DNA of 64,000 nucleotides from Dictyostelium discoideum (Eukaryota): positions 2,240,001 to 2,304,000 of the forward strand of contig CM000150.2 of the NCBI GenBank assembly GCA_000004695.1. Reading direction: 5' to 3'. The notes under the pieces were generated by a model that saw nothing but the letters and a program-made list of their open reading frames with translations, was not told the origin of the DNA and ran no database searches. Within the stretch, counting starts at the first letter, position 1; each line of letters starts with the position of its first letter. A program made the position numbers and the translations under genes. Below, piece by piece: positions 16,023-38,191 of the stretch.

Positions 16023-17759
16023 ATGAAAACTCCAACTAAATATTTCATTATATTTATTTTATTAGCTGCTTTAGCAGTTTTTGTATCTGAAGCCACTTCA
16101 AAAGTTGGACAACAAACAACCACAACTACTCAACAAGTTAAATGTTCAGGTTTACAATGTACTCTCAATAAACTTATTGTTGCTGGTATGTAAATTGATA
16201 AAAAAAAAAAAAAAAAATAAAAATAAAAATAAAAAAAAAGAATTTTTAAAAATCCAAATTAATTAATATTTTTACAAATATATTAATATTAAATTTATTT
16301 TATTTTATTTTTATTTTTTATAGTTGGTAAATTTACAATTAAACAAATTTTAGTTGGAATTGTTATTGTATTAGCAACAATTGCATTACATCAACAATAT
16401 GTTATTACACAAAAGAAAGGATCATTACCAGGACCATCATTCGTTCCACCATTCTTTGGTATGCTTTTCCAATTGATCTTCACTCCATTCTCATTCTATG
16501 AAAAACAAGAAAAGTATGGACCAATCTCATGGACATCAATTATGAATAAATTTGTACTTTTTGTCACTGATGCCGAGATCAATCGTCAAGTTTTCAAGGA
16601 AGAGAATGCCAAATTGTACCTTTCATTGGGTGCAAAGAAGATTCTCACTGAAAAGGCCATTCCATTCATTGAAGGTGCTCCACACAGACAATTACGTAAA
16701 CAATTGTTACCATTATTCACCATTCGTGCTCTTTCATCCTATCTTCCAATTCAAGAATCCATCGTCGATGAACATATTGCCATGTGGATTAAAAACGGTA
16801 AAGCCGATATCAACGCTCGTAACAATTGTCGTGATCTCAATATGGCCATTTCAACCGGTGTTTTCGTAGGTAACAATACACCAGAATCTGTTCGTGATGA
16901 TATTGCCAAGAATTTCTTTGTCATGAATGAAGGTTTCCTTTGTCTCCCAATCGATTTACCAGGTACCACTCTCCGTAAGGCAATCAATGCTCGTGTTCGT
17001 TTAGTTGAGATCTTCACTGATATCATCGCCAAAAGTCGTAAGAGAATGGGTGATGGTGAAAAACCACAATCTCTCATTGATCTCTGGGTTGAACATTTCC
17101 TCAATTGTCCAGAAGAAGAAAGAGATGAACTCAGCAATGACACTATTATCTTTACTCTCTTAAGTTTCATGTTTGCCTCTCAAGATGCTCTCACCTCTTC
17201 ATTGGTTTGGACCGTTCAATTAATGGCTGAACATCCAGATATTCTCGCTAAAGTTAGAGCCGAACAAGCTAGCCTCCGTCCAAATAATGAAAAATTAGAC
17301 CTTGATACCATGAGACAAGCCACCTACACTCGTATGGTAGTTTCTGAAATCCTTCGTTTCCGTCCACCAGCTGTTATGGTTCCACATGAAAACATTGAAG
17401 ATATCGTCATTGGTGATAATGTTCACGTTCCAAAGGGTACTATGATTCTTCCATCCATTTGGTCTGCTCACTTCCAAGAAGGTGGTTACTCTGATCCATA
17501 CAAATTCGATCCACAACGTTTCGATTCTGTCCGTAAGGAAGATGTCACTTGTGCTAAAAACTCACTCGTCTTTGGTGCTGGTCCACACTTTTGTATTGGT
17601 AAAGAACTCGCTAAAAATCAAATCGAAGTTTTCTTAACTAAATTAGCAATGTCAACTGAATGGACTCACAACAAAACTCCAGGTGGTGATGAAATTATCT
17701 TTGGTCCAACTATTTTCCCAAAGGATGGTTGTAACATTACTATTAAAGCTCGTAATTAA
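16023..17759 (+). CDS. Cytochrome P450, possibly CYP61/CYP710-like sterol C22-desaturase. Exons 16023..16185 and 16324..17759.
   Basis: Heme-binding signature FGAGPHFCIGK, with His in place of the usual Arg as in CYP61/710. LPGP..PFFG lies near the N-terminus. The TM anchor ILVGIVIVLATIAL is in exon 2, which has no Met before MLFQL, so an upstream exon is required. A GTATGT donor at 16186 (phase 1) and a TATAG acceptor at 16319-16323 are phase-consistent with the ATG at 16023. The exact family assignment is tentative. Confidence 0.7.
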
Positions 17760-21645: not shown

Positions 21646-23586
21646 ATGAAAATAAATTATATTTTATTATTAATTTTATTATTAATTAAATTAATAAACT
21701 CTTTTAATTATGAATTTGATGGCAAATATAAAATTTCAGAAAAATTAACTGACCATTTAATAAATAATCAAGATGAAGAAAATATTAAAATTTGGGTTAC
21801 TTTTAATTCAAAAAAAAAAGAAAATTTTTATAATATCGAAGAGTTTTCAAAAAACAATGGATTAAAAAAAGAATCAATAGAAAGAAGAATCAATAGATGT
21901 CATGATAAAAATAAAATTATTGATGATAGTGATATTATAATTAATCAAGATTTTATAAATCAAGTTTTAACCTGTGGTAATGAAAATACAATTAAATTAA
22001 TTCAAAAATCAAATTGGTTAAATTCAATCTCAATCTCACTTTTAAAAGAAACTTCAAATAAATTAATTGATTGTATAAAATCATTAGAATTTGTTGAAAC
22101 TGTAGATTTAGTTACAAAATTTAAAAAGAAAACAACGACAACAACAACAACTAAACCATTATCATCATCATCTAATGAATTTAATGGTTGTTTAAAAAAT
22201 GATGAAGATAATTCAAAATTTGAAAAAGAATTTAATAATTTAATTGAAAAGAAATTATTAGATTTAAAAAATAAATTATATTCATCATCAGCATCAGCAT
22301 CAGCATCAGCATCATCTTCTGATTCATATTTCAATGAAATTCCTGATAAATATTATGGTTATTCAAATACTGGATTGAGACAAATTAATGTTGATAAATT
22401 ACATGAAATGGGATATGATGGTTTTGGAATTAAAATTTTAATAACAGATACTGGTTATAGAAAATCTCATGAGGTTTTTAAACATATGAAAATTATTGGT
22501 GAATATAATTTCTTAAAGAATAAAAATAATACACAAGATGATTTTGATCCATTTTTTAAAGATGTAAATGAACAACAAACTGGCCATGGCACATTTACAT
22601 TATCAACTTTGGGTGGTTATAGACCTGGTGTTTTAATAGGTGCAGCATATAATGCATCATTTTTATTAGCTGAAACTGAAAATGCTACAAGTGATTTCCC
22701 ATTGGAGGAAGATAATTGGATTGCAGCTATTGAATGGGGTGAAAGCCATGGAGCTCAATTAGTATCCTCTTCATTGGGTTACGAAAATTGGTATACCTAT
22801 GCAAATAAGGATGGTCATTTTTCAAAAATTTCAAGAGTGGCAACAATGGCAGTTAATAAAGGAATGGTGGTAGTAATGGGTGTTGGTAATTCTGGTGATT
22901 TGGGTATGGGAATACCTGCAGATGCAGAATACGTTATATCAGTGGGTGCAATTGATTCAAATGGAGAAAGAACTGAATTCTCTTCAATTGGGCCCACTGC
23001 TGATGGGAGAATAAAACCAGAGGTAATGGCATTGGGACTTGGTAATTTAGTTGCACATAATTTAAACGATACCACCTATGATCGATTTGATGGCACAAGT
23101 TTCTCTTGCCCATTGGTAGCATCTGGTATAGCATTATTAATGCAGGCTCATCCAAATTGGTCACCAAAACAAATTTATGAAGCTGTGATTAGTAGTGCTT
23201 CAAAATCTAAATCACCAGATTATTTAATGGGTTTTGGTATTTTTAATGCCCTAAAAGCATATGAACACAATCCAACAAATTCATCCGATTGTACAATTAA
23301 TGGAATTGGCTGTTCAAATTCAAATGGTAGATGTAATTTACAATCAAAGCAATGTCAATGTGAATTACCATTTTATGGACAGTTTTGCCAATACAATAGA
23401 ATTCCTTGTGGTCAAAGATGTTTATTTTTAAATTCAACTTGTGGAATTCCTTCTAATAATTTTAATGTATCATTTACATGTATTGAACCAAACATTGGTG
23501 ATTTTTCAAATCAATCTCCAAAATTAAATAACAACAATTTTTATAAATCATTATTTATAATATTTTTATTTTTTATTTCAATTTAA
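21646..23586 (+). CDS. Subtilisin-like serine protease (S8), a tandem paralog of 18756..20867 with the same architecture.
   Basis: DTGYRKSHEVF, HGTFTLS and GTSFSCPLVASGIALLMQAHPNWS. Shared blocks WVTFNSK and SNWLNSISISLL. Cys-rich tail (CQCELPFYGQFCQYNRIPCGQRC) and hydrophobic end (FIIFLFFISI). Confidence 0.85.
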   Translation: MKINYILLLILLLIKLINSFNYEFDGKYKISEKLTDHLINNQDEENIKIWVTFNSKKKENFYNIEEFSKNNGLKKESIERRINRCHDKNKIIDDSDIIINQDFINQVLTCGNENTIKLIQKSNWLNSISISLLKETSNKLIDCIKSLEFVETVDLVTKFKKKTTTTTTTKPLSSSSNEFNGCLKNDEDNSKFEKEFNNLIEKKLLDLKNKLYSSSASASASASSSDSYFNEIPDKYYGYSNTGLRQINVDKLHEMGYDGFGIKILITDTGYRKSHEVFKHMKIIGEYNFLKNKNNTQDDFDPFFKDVNEQQTGHGTFTLSTLGGYRPGVLIGAAYNASFLLAETENATSDFPLEEDNWIAAIEWGESHGAQLVSSSLGYENWYTYANKDGHFSKISRVATMAVNKGMVVVMGVGNSGDLGMGIPADAEYVISVGAIDSNGERTEFSSIGPTADGRIKPEVMALGLGNLVAHNLNDTTYDRFDGTSFSCPLVASGIALLMQAHPNWSPKQIYEAVISSASKSKSPDYLMGFGIFNALKAYEHNPTNSSDCTINGIGCSNSNGRCNLQSKQCQCELPFYGQFCQYNRIPCGQRCLFLNSTCGIPSNNFNVSFTCIEPNIGDFSNQSPKLNNNNFYKSLFIIFLFFISI

Positions 23587-24501
23587 TAAATATTTTTAAT
23601 TTTAACAAATAAATAAAATTTATTATTATTATTTTTTTCTTATTTGTTAAATAGTTTTTCTTTTTTTTTTTTATTTTTCTTTTATTTAATAATATAAAAT
23701 TTTTATTAATTTTGTAGTGCATAGAGCAATTGCTTTTAGCTCGATTTCTTAGTAGAAAGAAATTGTTGTTGTTGATATGGTTTCTGTTTTTGTTTGTATG
23801 AATTTGAAGAGGTGTGACTGTAGAGTGAGAGCAATGGTGAGAGTATTTTTTATTTTTTTTTTTTTTAAAAAAGGTTAATAATTAATTGAAATTAAAAATG
23901 GACAAAATTTATATTTAAATATATTTTTAGTTATTTGAATGTATATTAAATATGTTTTTATTTATATAAATATCAAATAAATAAATTAATCCAATATTAA
24001 TTATTATAATTTTTTTTATTATTTTTTTGTAAGGTTTGATAATTTTTGCACATCTCCAGCTCTCAGACAAAACATTTCTTTTTTATTTTTCTTTTTATTA
24101 AAAAAAAAAAAAAAAAAAAAAGAAATCGCCTACCCGGAAAGCTGGAGTGAGCCAAAAGTTAATCAAATTTTACCAATAAAAATAATAATAATAATAATAA
24201 ATATTAATTTTTTTTTACTAAATTCTAAGTGAATTTCTTTTTTACCAAATTCTAAAGTGACTTTATTTGATAATAAAAAAAAAAAAAAAAAAAAAAAAAT
24301 TTATATATATATTTTTAATTAATAAAAAAAAAAAAAAATATATAAAAAAATTAACAAAAAAGAAAAATATTCAATAAAAAAAAAATATTCAATAAAAAAA
24401 AAAAAAAAAAAATAGAAAATGAAAAGTAAAAAAAAACAATTTAATTATTTGTACTAATTTTTCTTTATTTAATAAAAATTAATAAAAAAAAAAAAATAAT
24501 T

Positions 24502-25089
24502 TTAAATACAAATTCCAGATGAAATTGGTAAATTTAAAAGATTACCTGAGGGACTACACATTTTAGTCCAATTTGAGCATTGTGACATACCTTCCATTTG
24601 AAGACACAAAGAGGAGTAAATTGGAAGTACAGCACAGCTTGGACTTAATTTTGTACATTTTTCACAGCCATCCATTGCCATATCATTACAAATACTTTTA
24701 ATACTTGAAAAGATATCCATAGTTTTTGGGAGATTTTTAATTGATTGTATTCTTGAACATTGTTTAATAACAGAATCTTTTGAACATAACTTTTTAAAGT
24801 TATTACATCCACTCATTCCTGGCATATCATGGGTACAACTATCACCGAGTATTGAAAATTCATCACAAGTACCATTTGAAGATCTCACTTGTTTACATGA
24901 TTTTTGAATTGAACAAATTGGCATGTATGGCATACTAGAGCATAGACGGTTAATATCTACTCTAATATTAAATATTGGATATTCATAATTAACACAACTT
25001 GGGTCATTTGAATGTGTAACACAATCAATTTCTCCTTTAATTTTATATATAAAACTAATTAAAATTAATAATATATTTAATATTTTCAT
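24502..25089 (-). CDS. Small secreted Cys-rich protein (195 aa) built from repeated Cys-flanked MxxM modules. Candidate metal (Cu) binding protein.
   Basis: Signal peptide MKILNILLILISFIYKIKG. An internal duplication pairs CTHDMPGMSGCNNFKKLCS with CLQMEGMSQCSNWTKMCS, and CSSMPYMPIC with CNDMAMDGC. Single ORF. Confidence 0.6.
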   Translation of the reverse strand: MKILNILLILISFIYKIKGEIDCVTHSNDPSCVNYEYPIFNIRVDINRLCSSMPYMPICSIQKSCKQVRSSNGTCDEFSILGDSCTHDMPGMSGCNNFKKLCSKDSVIKQCSRIQSIKNLPKTMDIFSSIKSICNDMAMDGCEKCTKLSPSCAVLPIYSSLCLQMEGMSQCSNWTKMCSPSGNLLNLPISSGICI

Positions 25090-26963: not shown

Positions 26964-28379
26964 ATGAAAATTGATTGTAAAAGAGTTTCATTAATTGGTT
27001 CACCTGAACCTAGATGGGGACATACTGGTACAACTTTACCTAATGGTAGTGGATTTATAGTATTTGGTGGAAATAGTAATAGAGCATTCAACGATATACA
27101 ATATTATAATATCTTTAATAATAGTTGGTCAAAAATTGAAGCAGTTGGAAATGCACCATCAGAAAGATATGGACATAGTGCAGTACTATATCAATCACAA
27201 TCAAGACCCTATAGTGATTCTTATCAAATTATATTTTTTGGTGGTAGAGCTACAAGTAAACCATTCTCAGATATTAATATATTATATGTAAATAGTAAGT
27301 TTAGTCTAGAATTCTATTTTTATTTTTTATTTTTTTTATTTGGAAAAATAAATATTCACTTTTTTTTTATTATTATTTTTTTTTATTATTTTTTAATTAA
27401 AAAAAACAAAGGTAATAGAAGTTTTATTTGGAAACAAGTTACAACTAAATCAATTGAAGGTAGAGCAGGACATACAGCAGTAGTTTATCGTCAAAATTTA
27501 GTAGTATTTGGTGGACATAATAATCATAAGAGTAAATATTACAATAGTGTATTATTATTTAGTTTAGAGTCGAACGAATGGAGACAACAGGTATGTGGAG
27601 GTGTTATACCATCAGCACGTGCAACTCATTCAACATTTCAAGTTAATAATAATAAAATGTTTATATTTGGTGGATACGATGGTAAAAAGTATTATAATGA
27701 TATCTACTATTTGGATTTAGAGACATGGATTTGGAAAAAGGTGGAAGCTAAAGGTACACCTCCCAAACCAAGGAGTGGTCATTCAGCAACAATGATTCAG
27801 AATAATAAGTTAATGATTTTCGGTGGATGTGGATCAGATTCAAACTTTTTAAATGACATTCATATACTACATATTGAGGGTGCAAATGAGTATAGGTGGG
27901 AGCAACCCTCCTATTTAGGTTTAGAGATTCCTCAAGCTAGATTTAGACATACAACCAATTTCATTGGTGGTAGAGTTTACATTTATGCTGGTACTGGATC
28001 TGGTAATTTAATGGGTGATCTTCACACTTTAGAATTCTTGGATGATAATAATACTCCTTTAATACCAATTACAATCTCAATACCAATCACAAATTCAAAT
28101 AGTATTGTTGGTTCACCTAATACCTCAATTAGTTGTGGTGTTAGTAATAGTGGTGCTAGTAGTAGTAGTGGTGGTGGTATTAGTGGTCATCCTTCAATTT
28201 TATCATCTTCATCTTCATCTTCTTATTTATCAACTTCACCATTATCAACTTCATCTTTAGCTTCAAGTTATCAAAGTTCTCAAAGTTTACAATTTAATCA
28301 AAATCAAAATCAAAATAATAATAATAATAATAACAATAATAATAATAATAATATTCAAACAACAACTACAACAACAACA

Positions 28380-28434
<55 letters not shown>

Positions 28435-29242
28435 TTGAGTCTAATCAACAACAACAACAAATTCAACACCAAACATCACCAATGTCAGTATTATCAAGAT
28501 CAAATTCAAATATAAGTTTAAATTCATTAAATTCATCAAGTTCATCAATATTATCAACACCATCAACACTTTCAACAACAACTACAACTACAACAACATC
28601 ACATGCATCACATACATCACATACATCAAATAGATCAAATGGAAGTAGAGGTGGAATACCATCAATACCACCATTTAATGGAAGATCATCAAATCATAAT
28701 AATAATAATAATAGTAACAGTAATAATTATAATAATCATCAACAAACCAAAACTAATTCTGCCGAAGAACTAATATTGGAAGAGTTAAAATCTTTGAATA
28801 TTTATGATCAAGCTGCTTGTAATAAAGATTTTCAAACCAATTTAAAAAGAGTTGAAGAACTTTTTAATCAAAAAATTAAACATGAACAAAAGTATCGACA
28901 ATCATTGGAAGAGAAATTGGGTAAAGCAAATCATCAAGTTTCTTTATTAACAAATCAAATTCAAAGTATCATTCAAAAAGATGAATTAACCTCTTTGAAA
29001 AAGGAATATAGTGAATTGAAAAAGAAACATAGTTTACTCTATTCAGAGGATATTGATGATTTACCAACTGAAACTTGTTTAAAACTTGAAGAAATTCATG
29101 TAAAATCTTTAGAAAAATTAAGAGTTAAAAAATTACCATCTTCTAATCAATTATCAACATTACAACAACAAATACCACAACAACCAACAACAATAATATG
29201 TAATAATAGTCAAATAATTCAACAACAACCACTACCACCATT

Positions 29243-29300
<58 letters not shown>

Positions 29301-29912
29301 CCATTAGAAATTCAAGAACAATTAACAATGTTACAATTACAACTTTCACAATTATCTCAACAACAACAAAACCAAATCGATAAACAACAAAAACAAGAAA
29401 AATTACAACAAGAACAACAACAACAACAATTGAAAAATATTAATAGATTATCAATTTCATCAAATAGTTCAACATTATCATCAAAAGATAGTTTTTATTT
29501 TGAATCAAAGATTCAAGAATTATCAAATCAATTAAAAGAGAAACAACAAGCTATTACCGATCGTGATAATAAAATTAAAGACTTTGAAAATCAATTAAAT
29601 AAATATAAATTAATCGGATTGGATTCATTGGATCATTATCAGCTTTTAGAGTTGGAATCAAGTTTTCATAATGGTTTAAAACAAATTGGTTCTATAAAAG
29701 ATCAAAGATACCTCAATCGTTTGGTTTCACTGGAAAAAGAGAAAGATCAATTAAAAGATCAAAATAGTTGTGTCATTTGCGCTTCAAACCCTCCAAATAT
29801 TGTATTACTACCATGTAGACATAGTTCATTATGTTCAGATTGTTGTTCAAAATTAACAAAATGTCCAATTTGTAGATCCCATATTGAAAATAAGATTTCA
29901 ATTTATCAATAA
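26964..29912 (+). CDS. Kelch-repeat beta-propeller, coiled-coil and C-terminal C3HC4 RING protein (putative E3 ubiquitin ligase). Exons 26964..27294 and 27412..29912.
   Basis: Kelch motifs (GGN..., W.K....G..P..RYGHSAV; [10 protein letters not shown]). RING: [36 protein letters not shown]. The intron has a GTAAGT donor at 27295 (phase 1) and a CAAAG acceptor at 27410-27411, joining ...[15 protein letters not shown]. Poly-N and poly-Q tracts are present. Confidence 0.8.
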
Positions 29913-34360: not shown

Positions 34361-35050
34361 TCACCAATATTTTTTAATAAGATAAACAAATTTTTTTAAT
34401 ATAGTAGTTTCTTCAACTATTTGAGAACAACAAATTTGTGAGTTTGGAGGTGCAGTAATTTCTTGTGGTTGTTTGGACTCAACATTATTATTTGTTATAT
34501 TTGTAGTTGTAGTTTGAGTTTTATAATCATTTTTATTATAATTATTATTAATGTTGTTATTATTATTAATAATATTATTATCATTATTGTTGGTTTTTCT
34601 TTTATTTATAATTATATCTTCAATTTTTTGTTTTTTTATAAAGGCTGAAGGACTTTTATAAATTTCATTAGCAATGGCTTTCTTTATTTCACTTTGGCCA
34701 AAATCTTTATTACTATTATTGTTATTATTATCATTATTTTTATTATTTTTATTATTATTATTATTATGATTACTATTATTATTATTATTATTTATATTAT
34801 TATTATTTTTATTATTATTTTTAAAATTATTATTATTGATTGGATTCAATGCTAGTGAATGTATTAAATTGGAAGAGTTCACTAAAAAGTTTTCAGAAAT
34901 TGATGAGGTTGAAGGAGGCCCTGGCGGTGTCCTTAATCTTAAATCTCCATTATTATTCTCATTATTTTTTTCTTGTTTTTGTCTTTTATCTAATTTTTCA
35001 TTATTATTAGAATTATAATTATTAATTAAATTATTAATGTTCAAATTTAA

Positions 35051-35143
<93 letters not shown>

Positions 35144-35842
35144 TTTATTATTTATATTATTTAAATTATTATTTATATGATTATTTAAATTATTATAATT
35201 ATTATTAATATTATTTGTATTAGTTATTTTTATATTATTATTAATGAGATTAGTATTAATTTGAAATCCAATATTATTATTTCTTTTTGTTGTTGTTATT
35301 TTATTTTTATTCCTTTCAAAATAATCTTTTAGGGGTTTAGTAACTTGGAGTTTTGGTGGAGAGGCATTTTTTAATCTTGATCTTGTTTGGATGGTTGATT
35401 TTATTATGATTTTTGTTGGTTCTTTAGTTTTTGGAGGTTGAGAGTTTTTTATTGATTTTTTAGCCAAACATATTGTGCAATTTTTAACAAAATTTATTGA
35501 GTCAATTGTGTAACCATTCCAGATAAAACGAAGTGATCGAAGAATTTTTATTGTTTTAGTTATACTATAGTGATTACTTCCATGGCAATATCCGATTATT
35601 GAATTTTTAATATGATTACTAATAGGTGTCAATACTGTTTTTAATCTATTTTTTATTTTTTGTCTTGATCTAAGACACTGAAACCCACTCTTTATTACTG
35701 GATAATACTTCCTCTCTTTTAAAAGTAACTCAGTTTCCTCTAATTCATTTATACCTATCTCATTCTTCTTATTTGATATAAATTTATAAATATTTTCATA
35801 TTGAGAAATTGATTTTAATTTTAAATTTGTTTTTTTTGTCAT
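34361..35842 (-). CDS. Poly-Asn-rich protein whose only recognisable domain is an N-terminal retroviral/retrotransposon-type integrase zinc-binding (HHCC, Integrase_H2C2) domain.
   Basis: GYCHGSNHYSITKTIKILRSLRFIWNGYTIDSINFVKNCTICLAKK fits the H-x3-H ... YWpgm..di..yv..C..C...K integrase N-terminal zinc finger. No DDE core or RT domain follows. The rest is (AAT)n-encoded poly-N, ending ...ICCSQIVEETTILKKFVYLIKKYW. The 493-codon ORF is intact. Confidence 0.6.
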
Positions 35843-38095: not shown

Positions 38096-38167
38096 TCCTT
38101 GTTGGTCTAGTGGTGAGGATTTTCGCCTGTCACGCGAAAGGCCCGGGTTCAATTCCCGGACAGGGAG
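38096..38167 (+). tRNA. tRNA-Asp (anticodon GUC), identical in sequence to the minus-strand copy at 25532..25603.
   Basis: TCCTTGTTGGTCTAGTGGTGAGGATTTTCGCCTGTCACGCGAAAGGCCCGGGTTCAATTCCCGGACAGGGAG. Followed by CTTTTTAT. Confidence 0.9.
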
Positions 38168-38191
38168 CTTTTTATTTGAAAATTTTAAGGT

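Follow-up and report, generated by a model that had tools for sequence, protein, structure and literature searches.

A stand-alone CTRA-domain paralog of the P80 ectodomain in Dictyostelium discoideum and its possible part in copper handling

The product of DDB_G0268858 in Dictyostelium discoideum is, on sequence evidence, almost certainly a stand-alone CTRA (CTR-associated) paralog of the P80 ectodomain. We consider it reasonably probable that the whole of a wider description also applies, in which the protein is a secreted or lumenal paralog of P80 and, at the same time, its partner in the capture and hand-off, or buffering, of Cu(I). The gene lies in a stretch of 64,000 nucleotides of AX4 chromosome 1 (the window), in which G+C content is about 22% and intergenic DNA carries long A/T runs. 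Its open reading frame (ORF) exactly matches XP_647021.1 of D. discoideum AX4 (= DDB_G0268858 / Q55EJ9). Databases annotate the gene as encoding a "hypothetical protein," and a full-text literature search for DDB_G0268858 and Q55EJ9 returned no paper naming either. In kind, the protein is already known. The accessible text of a 2023 preprint (Strenkert et al., bioRxiv 10.1101/2023.10.19.563170) mentions that Dictyostelium has a soluble protein with a single CTRA domain, derived from P80 and analogous to Chlamydomonas CTR3. We infer that this protein is DDB_G0268858, because ours was the sole stand-alone CTRA cluster from D. discoideum found by profile and word-indexed searches.

An earlier reading made from the sequence alone (the sequence-only reading) had described a 195-aa frame at 24502-25089 on the minus strand, and the frame is exactly as described, followed by a stop codon. 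Features of the gene are given below; the coordinates of the domain and motifs were verified by translation.

24502..25089, minus strand: complete single-exon coding sequence of DDB_G0268858 / Q55EJ9, 195 codons plus TAA (ORF list and sequence)
25033..25089, minus strand: predicted signal peptide, residues 1-19, MKILNILLILISFIYKIKG (hydropathy and P80 alignment)
24508..25023, minus strand: CTRA domain, residues 23-194, from first to last conserved Cys (profile search, P80 identity, and AlphaFold2)
24757..24942, minus strand: half-repeat A, C50-C111, containing motifs 1 and 2 (hhalign against half B)
24508..24690, minus strand: half-repeat B, C134-C194, containing motifs 3 and 4 (hhalign against half A; BLASTP cross-matches)
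24895..24942, minus strand: Cys-Met motif 1, CSSMPYMPICSIQKSC, residues 50-65, CxxMxxMxxC-x5-C (CSSMPYMPIC-x5-C)
24784..24837, minus strand: Cys-Met motif 2, CTHDMPGMSGCNNFKKLC, residues 85-102, CxxxMxxMxxC-x6-C (CTHDMPGMSGC-x6-C)
24655..24690, minus strand: Cys-Met motif 3, CNDMAMDGCEKC, residues 134-145, CxxMxMxxC-xx-C (CNDMAMDGC-x2-C)
24556..24606, minus strand: Cys-Met motif 4, CLQMEGMSQCSNWTKMC, residues 162-178, CxxMxxMxxC-x6-C (CLQMEGMSQC-x6-C)

Residues 1-19 form the only strongly hydrophobic segment of the protein on the Kyte-Doolittle scale, where the top 19-residue windows all start at residues 1-7 and peak at 1.69. These residues align with the signal peptide of P80, and every ortholog has a signal peptide once one gene model, from D. 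firmibasis, is corrected. Hydropathy is consistent with the signal peptide that had been claimed from the sequence. Cleavage presumably occurs before EIDC, and the protein is presumably secreted. Its mature part comprises 176 residues, including 18 Cys and 10 Met. Hydropathy revealed no TM-like segment after the signal peptide and no hydrophobic C-terminal tail.

The protein falls outside the Ctr (SLC31) family as defined by three TM helices, MxxxM in TM2, GxxxG in TM3, and PF04145. Scanned against Pfam at a threshold of E ≤ 10, the protein matched no family. When the 64-kb window was searched by tblastn with a full CTRA-CTR protein, only the ectodomain was matched, all other matches having E > 7, and no Ctr pore was detected. 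The approximately 900 bp between the stop codon and a convergent subtilase gene are A/T-rich and contain no coding-like frame. Lacking a Pfam match, a TM segment, and Ctr coding sequence, the DDB_G0268858 product is therefore not a transporter but only a relative of a transporter ectodomain.

Stand-alone orthologs occur in D. citrinum, D. dimigraforme, and D. firmibasis. The word-indexed search returned them as proteins of 191-196 aa; as single ORFs, which all share the same end point, they measure 193-201 aa. Because the word-indexed homolog search did not recover P80 itself, the lack of a match from D. purpureum or other dictyostelids in that search does not signify absence. The D. firmibasis model RB653_007313 (CM069769.1; L002 6001-7021) is a spliced, 191-aa product with the N-terminus MNKKKMDKKKRE and no signal peptide. 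From L002 6416 onward (MKIFYSILFFNLIFYLILIKG...), an uninterrupted ORF of 201 aa can be read that has a normal one. Since this ORF restores the signal peptide, RB653_007313 is probably mis-annotated through a mis-called upstream exon.

The four C...MxxM...C units noted in the sequence-only reading are all present, and they hold eight of the ten Met in the mature protein. Two of them (residues 50-65 and 162-178) are exact copies of CxxMxxMxxC-x5/6-C, and two are variants, with CxxxM at residues 85-102 and with MxM and C-x2-C at residues 134-145. Motif 4 also includes an N-x-T sequon (N173). Four such motifs never arose when the mature sequence was shuffled 200,000 times, and three arose in only four of the shuffles. 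The internal two-fold repeat that had been proposed also proved real, and it is larger than claimed, extending over the whole domain. When 165 full-length homologous domains were used to build one profile for residues 40-113 and another for residues 124-193, hhalign aligned the two with a probability of 98.6% over 58 columns and an E value of 9.4e-16, the latter possibly somewhat inflated by Cys-rich composition. Seven Cys fall in register (50/134, 59/142, 65/145, 75/152, 85/162, 95/171, and 102/178), and this register therefore assigns two motifs to each half. Identical spacings in the two halves, with x9 before the second motif and x6 after it, favor a true duplication. By BLASTP, half B cross-matched first-half segments of an algal CTR3-like protein. 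Overall, the CTRA domain consists of an N-terminal Cys pair (C23 and C32) and then two homologous 8-Cys halves.

Across 165 CTRA domains, Cys are 95-100% conserved, reaching 100% for the motif Cys of motif 1, and seven of the eight motif Met are conserved at 90-96% (M53, 93%, and M56, 96%, in motif 1; M89, 93%, and M92, 94%, in motif 2; M139, 91%, in motif 3; M165, 92%, and M168, 90%, in motif 4). The exception is position 137 in motif 3, where 114 of the 165 domains have M and 37 have H. Judged from the alignment, this M/H exchange is ligand-like, a swap of two classical copper ligands. The two Met outside the motifs behave otherwise: M124 is replaced by almost any residue, and M177 is replaced by L, F, W, or I in homologs, suggesting a role in packing. 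Among the orthologs, AX4, D. dimigraforme, and D. firmibasis retain the full set of eight motif Met, and the others retain seven or eight, despite overall divergence of 25-30%. One D. discoideum strain (P0001) carries M168I.

The Cys appear to have a structural part as well. In the few Cys-deficient homologs, C152 is lost jointly with C142 or C145, and such paired loss suggests at least one structural disulfide. Because most of the 18 Cys of the secreted protein are probably disulfide-bonded, the "Cys bracket" around each Met pair may be a staple rather than a ligand. An AlphaFold2 model, run on an alignment of 36 sequences, is all-helical (pLDDT 91.4, pTM 0.82). In this model each Met pair lies in a short inter-helix loop, between helices 39-52 and 57-68 for motif 1 and between helices 77-88 and 93-101 for motif 2, and the last and first turns of the helices carry the bracketing Cys. 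As modeled, each half is made of two helix-loop-helix units with the Met pair in the loop and Cys at the helix ends. A sequence profile search of the PDB gave only a chance match (a gamma-tubulin complex subunit, E 0.013) and no PDB counterpart.

Profile similarity makes DDB_G0268858 a member of the CTRA Cys-Met domain family. An exhaustive profile search with the protein yielded 707 clusters at E ≤ 1e-3, including 124 at E ≤ 1e-30. A unit of approximately 160 residues (profile positions about 22-183) matched as a block, one to five times per protein, and a Ctr pore lies C-terminal to one to three domain copies in 120 of the 154 homologs examined. Some homologs carry a precomputed PF04145 (Ctr copper transporter) annotation, and a 342-aa homolog from the word-indexed search has the same domain ahead of a PF04145 Ctr domain. 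A second profile search recovered mostly PF04145 proteins from chytrids, other early-diverging fungi, and green algae, and its top match was the cluster of D. discoideum P80 (Q7YXD4). In total, named CTRA homologs come from chytrids and other early-diverging fungi, Amoebozoa, green algae, and a glaucophyte. Given that the Pfam scan returned nothing at E ≤ 10, the family lacks a Pfam model. The accessible part of the preprint names the region the CTRA domain and gives the taxa of its CTRA-CTR cluster as green algae, early-diverging fungi, and Amoebozoa (10.1101/2023.10.19.563170). The sequence-only reading had taken the protein for a member of no recognized family. That part of the reading found no support, because the domain, which forms the ectodomain of Ctr copper transporters, and the protein itself have already been noted in the literature. 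The copper-related part fared better, being favored by homology and by conservation of the motifs.

When DDB_G0268858 was aligned with single-domain CTRA-CTR proteins, all 18 Cys were invariant. The last conserved Cys of the fused proteins lies shortly upstream of the pore start "PPxMxMYFH." DDB_G0268858 stops one residue past its last domain Cys, whereas the fused homologs run on through a short linker to the pore. Architectures vary elsewhere in the family. Two proteins of the glaucophyte Cyanophora paradoxa (P0010 and P0195) are multi-CTRA Ctr proteins. Eight CTRA proteins (P0023, P0067, P0078, P0090, P0101, P0102, P0118, and P0151) lack a pore and end in a hydrophobic C-terminal tail; three of these tailed proteins come from Quaeritorhiza (a chytrid), Hyaloraphidium (a fungus), and Echinamoeba (an amoebozoan). 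From their sequences they look GPI-anchor-like or tail-anchored, a third architecture besides the fused and soluble forms.

The closest paralog of DDB_G0268858 is P80 (Q7YXD4, DDB_G0287297, 530 aa, "endosomal membrane protein"), which was also the sole CTRA-bearing Ctr protein of D. discoideum found by profile and word-indexed searches. Identity is 57% to P80 domain 1, signal peptide included, and 60% to domain 2, with no difference in the Cys framework or in any of the four Cys-Met motifs. The two proteins differ in that P80 has two tandem CTRA domains followed by a Ctr pore with MxxxM and GxxxG, whereas DDB_G0268858 has one domain and no pore; their genes also lie on different chromosome-scale contigs (5.29 Mb for P80 versus 4.92 Mb for DDB_G0268858). 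Reviews place P80 in the plasma membrane and, for short times, in phagosomes; they note its induction by bacteria, presume that it brings copper into the cytosol from the lumen or the exterior, and cite no functional study of it. The same literature discusses copper as an antibacterial metal in phagosomes. The P80 ortholog of D. dimigraforme (P0191, 716 aa) has three CTRA domains rather than two; the extra domain groups with domain 1, which points to recent tandem duplication within the transporter gene.

Four species and several strains have an intact ORF that includes the signal peptide. By the Nei-Gojobori method, dN/dS for pairs of those species was 0.29-0.33 at dS of 0.49-0.66. Between D. 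discoideum and D. citrinum, omega was 0.24 for the mature domain, whereas the first domain of P80 gave 0.146 and the second 0.044; the value is thus 1.6- to 5-fold higher in the stand-alone protein. These values indicate purifying selection on DDB_G0268858 that is relaxed relative to its P80 parent. In a neighbor-joining tree of nonalgal sequences, the stand-alone Dictyostelium proteins formed a clade (98% bootstrap) that was sister to a clade of all P80 domains (97%), and both fell inside a dictyostelid-like CTRA-CTR group with Heterostelium album among its members (98%). This topology fits an origin of the stand-alone gene by duplication from the P80 lineage, an event that we date no further than the four species compared. 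Because the stand-alone branches are long, its timing relative to the internal duplication of P80 is uncertain.

The surroundings of the gene are listed here by coordinate.

16461-17759 and 26964-29912, plus strand: cytochrome P450 and Kelch-repeat plus RING-finger protein, neighbors of DDB_G0268858
18756-20867, plus strand: subtilase (Peptidase_S8), 703 aa, tandem paralog of the next subtilase
21646-23586, plus strand: subtilase (Peptidase_S8), 646 aa, convergent with DDB_G0268858
25531-25603, minus strand: tRNA-Asp(GTC), about 440 bp upstream of the DDB_G0268858 start codon (Rfam)
34361-35842, minus strand: ORF of 493 aa whose product has an integrase zinc-binding H2C2 domain (E 3.5e-7); the second tRNA-Asp lies about 2 kb away
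38096-38168, plus strand: tRNA-Asp(GTC), identical copy (Rfam)

The cytochrome P450 and Kelch/RING neighbors have no evident functional tie to copper. By eye, the 646-aa subtilase has a signal-peptide-like start and, at its C-terminal end, a Cys-rich, EGF-like region and a hydrophobic tail. The two tRNAs were the only features returned by an Rfam scan of the window. In Dictyostelium, the retroelements TRE and DGLT-A use tRNA genes as landing sites. The 493-aa H2C2 ORF is probably part of an LTR-retrotransposon remnant. Downstream of DDB_G0268858, two islands of higher G+C content without A/T runs (23700-23860 and 24125-24175; minus-strand reading, e.g., "...ggctcactccagctttccgggtaggcgatttc...") had no Rfam match at the gathering threshold and could be UTR or small RNA.

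Extracytosolic Mets motifs (MxxM/MxM) are well known from yeast and human Ctr1, where they lie directly N-terminal to the pore and are thought to bind Cu(I) and feed it to the pore. These motifs occur in Met/His-rich segments that are generally regarded as unstructured and that have no Cys framework. DDB_G0268858 shares with Ctr1 the MxxM/MxM thioether pairs. It differs in that its Met pairs are placed in the loops of a Cys-rich, predicted helical domain outside the Pfam Ctr model. A Cys-Met motif is also known from green algae. For Chlamydomonas CTR1 and CTR2, "a novel Cys-Met motif" was reportedly described by Page et al. in Plant Cell in 2009 (21:928), and its definition is said to be CxxMxxMxxC-x5/6-C. 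The same motif is present in CTR3, which the accessible text of the preprint describes as a periplasmic Chlamydomonas protein that has three CTRA domains, lacks TM helices, and is induced by, and present under, Cu deficiency; according to that text, the ctr3 mutant has no Cu-assimilation phenotype (10.1101/2023.10.19.563170). As far as the same source goes, CTR3 resembles DDB_G0268858 in being a stand-alone partial duplication of a CTRA-CTR transporter that lacks TM helices, with a signal peptide that in DDB_G0268858 is a predicted one, and differs in having three domains joined by Pro-rich linkers rather than one.

We compared DDB_G0268858 with CTR3 through presumed orthologs from C. incerta and Edaphochlamys rather than through C. 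reinhardtii CTR3 itself. Its profile matched the pore-less C. incerta protein P0015 (661 aa) in three stretches (E 4.4e-57) and the pore-less, three-domain protein P0011 of Edaphochlamys debaryana (E 9.7e-61), and BLASTP against the C. incerta protein gave 35% identity (E 4e-22). In contrast to DDB_G0268858, the CTR3-like algal protein has several degenerate Met motifs in the second half. In the tree, which was made without algal sequences, DDB_G0268858 nests with dictyostelid P80-type domains. On this evidence DDB_G0268858 is an analog of CTR3 rather than an ortholog, with a separate origin, and independent origins of the Dictyostelium and CTR3 soluble forms are also stated in the accessible text of the preprint (10.1101/2023.10.19.563170). 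Two other comparisons involve unrelated folds. CopC and PcoC, proposed as analogs in the sequence-only reading, are small and secreted and have a Cu(I) site rich in Met, but DDB_G0268858 has neither the CopC fold nor the Pfam CopC signature. Fungal Bim1-type proteins, which are secreted or anchored and have been proposed to acquire Cu for a Ctr transporter, are a functional analogy only; they belong to an unrelated family and fold, with no sequence or structural similarity detected. As given in the accessible preprint text, BIM1 domains also occur fused to Ctr proteins (10.1101/2023.10.19.563170).

What the protein might do can be proposed from its sequence and from its relation to P80. It would occupy the extracellular space or the endo-phagosomal lumen, the compartment faced by the P80 ectodomain. 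There, the thioether Met pairs, possibly together with some Cys, would bind Cu(I), and the loaded protein might either hand copper to P80 or buffer it. By analogy, the hand-off role would parallel a proposal made for periplasmic CTR3. We put this functional part, i.e., Cu(I) binding on the Met-loop sites together with soluble capture and hand-off, or buffering, for P80, at slightly better than an even chance. The accessible portion of the CTRA literature contained no report of direct Cu binding by any CTRA domain. A more specific version, which we think unlikely, would make the soluble CTRA protein a dedicated copper shuttle that carries Cu(I) on its four Met-loop sites, docks onto the ectodomains of the P80 trimer, and either feeds the pore or withholds or concentrates copper around ingested bacteria.

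Other readings draw on much of the same evidence. The protein could act as a regulator or decoy that associates with P80 ectodomains, or competes for copper or for a partner, and so tunes transport, or it could be a protective copper sink. Its 57-60% identity to both P80 ectodomain copies would suit such a role, as would the presence of P80 at the plasma membrane and in phagosomes, where reviews treat copper as antibacterial; so would a constraint that is relaxed yet real (omega 0.24-0.33) and, from the accessible preprint text, the lack of an uptake phenotype in algal ctr3. However, capture and hand-off would equally need Cu binding or P80 contact, so that the same observations fit both, and a pure protein-protein decoy would have no need of the motif Met, all of which are retained in AX4. 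We regard this reading as doubtful. It is rather improbable that DDB_G0268858 is a disulfide-rich secreted protein with a role unrelated to copper (structural, adhesive, or directed at another ligand), in which the Met motifs are inherited baggage. Such a role would account for the 18 Cys, the structural disulfides suggested by paired Cys loss, the faster evolution than in P80 domains, M168I in one D. discoideum strain, and the existence of stand-alone, tail-anchored, or GPI-like CTRA versions in chytrids and Echinamoeba. It accounts poorly for the retention of seven or eight motif Met in every ortholog, at 25-30% divergence, and for the M/H interchange at position 137, which is typical of metal ligands, whereas structural Met tend to change to hydrophobic residues.

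Two further readings would deny the protein a function of its own. As a truncated copy of a larger gene on another chromosome-scale contig, with omega above that of its P80 parent and no expression record in our literature search, DDB_G0268858 might be a decaying, nonfunctional P80 fragment left by partial gene duplication. We find this very improbable, given an ORF and signal peptide that are intact across four species and several strains, dN/dS of 0.29-0.33 at dS of about 0.5-0.65, 18 invariant Cys of 18, and a clean end point one residue past the last domain Cys. The pore directly follows the domain in most homologs, and the gene could for that reason be taken as the opening exon of a full Ctr transporter whose annotation missed pore exons lying downstream. 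That is scarcely credible, since three other species have the same truncated architecture, and a downstream Ctr-pore exon was ruled out by the tblastn search of the 64-kb window and by reading of the A/T-rich downstream DNA. The candidate role that we favor for DDB_G0268858 is that of a copper-capturing or buffering partner of P80.

The finding is not a new kind of system. A known one has been re-identified with added descriptive detail, namely the whole-domain duplication, the selection values, the M/H pattern, the paired Cys loss, the predicted helical fold, and the tailed stand-alone forms. Ctr transporters are the universal eukaryotic route of copper entry, yet little is understood of how copper gets from the outside to the pore. 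As an addition to these transporters the CTRA domain is widespread (707 clusters), with neither a Pfam model nor a solved structure. DDB_G0268858 offers a minimal version of it, a single domain with 176 residues in the mature protein, and D. discoideum is a haploid phagocyte that is easily engineered. The protein is therefore a handy object for probing the role of CTRA in copper acquisition and bacterial killing. If the shuttle version were true, DDB_G0268858 would be the first genetically tractable soluble protein partner of a eukaryotic Ctr transporter, and the CTRA fold would gain a defined biochemical function.
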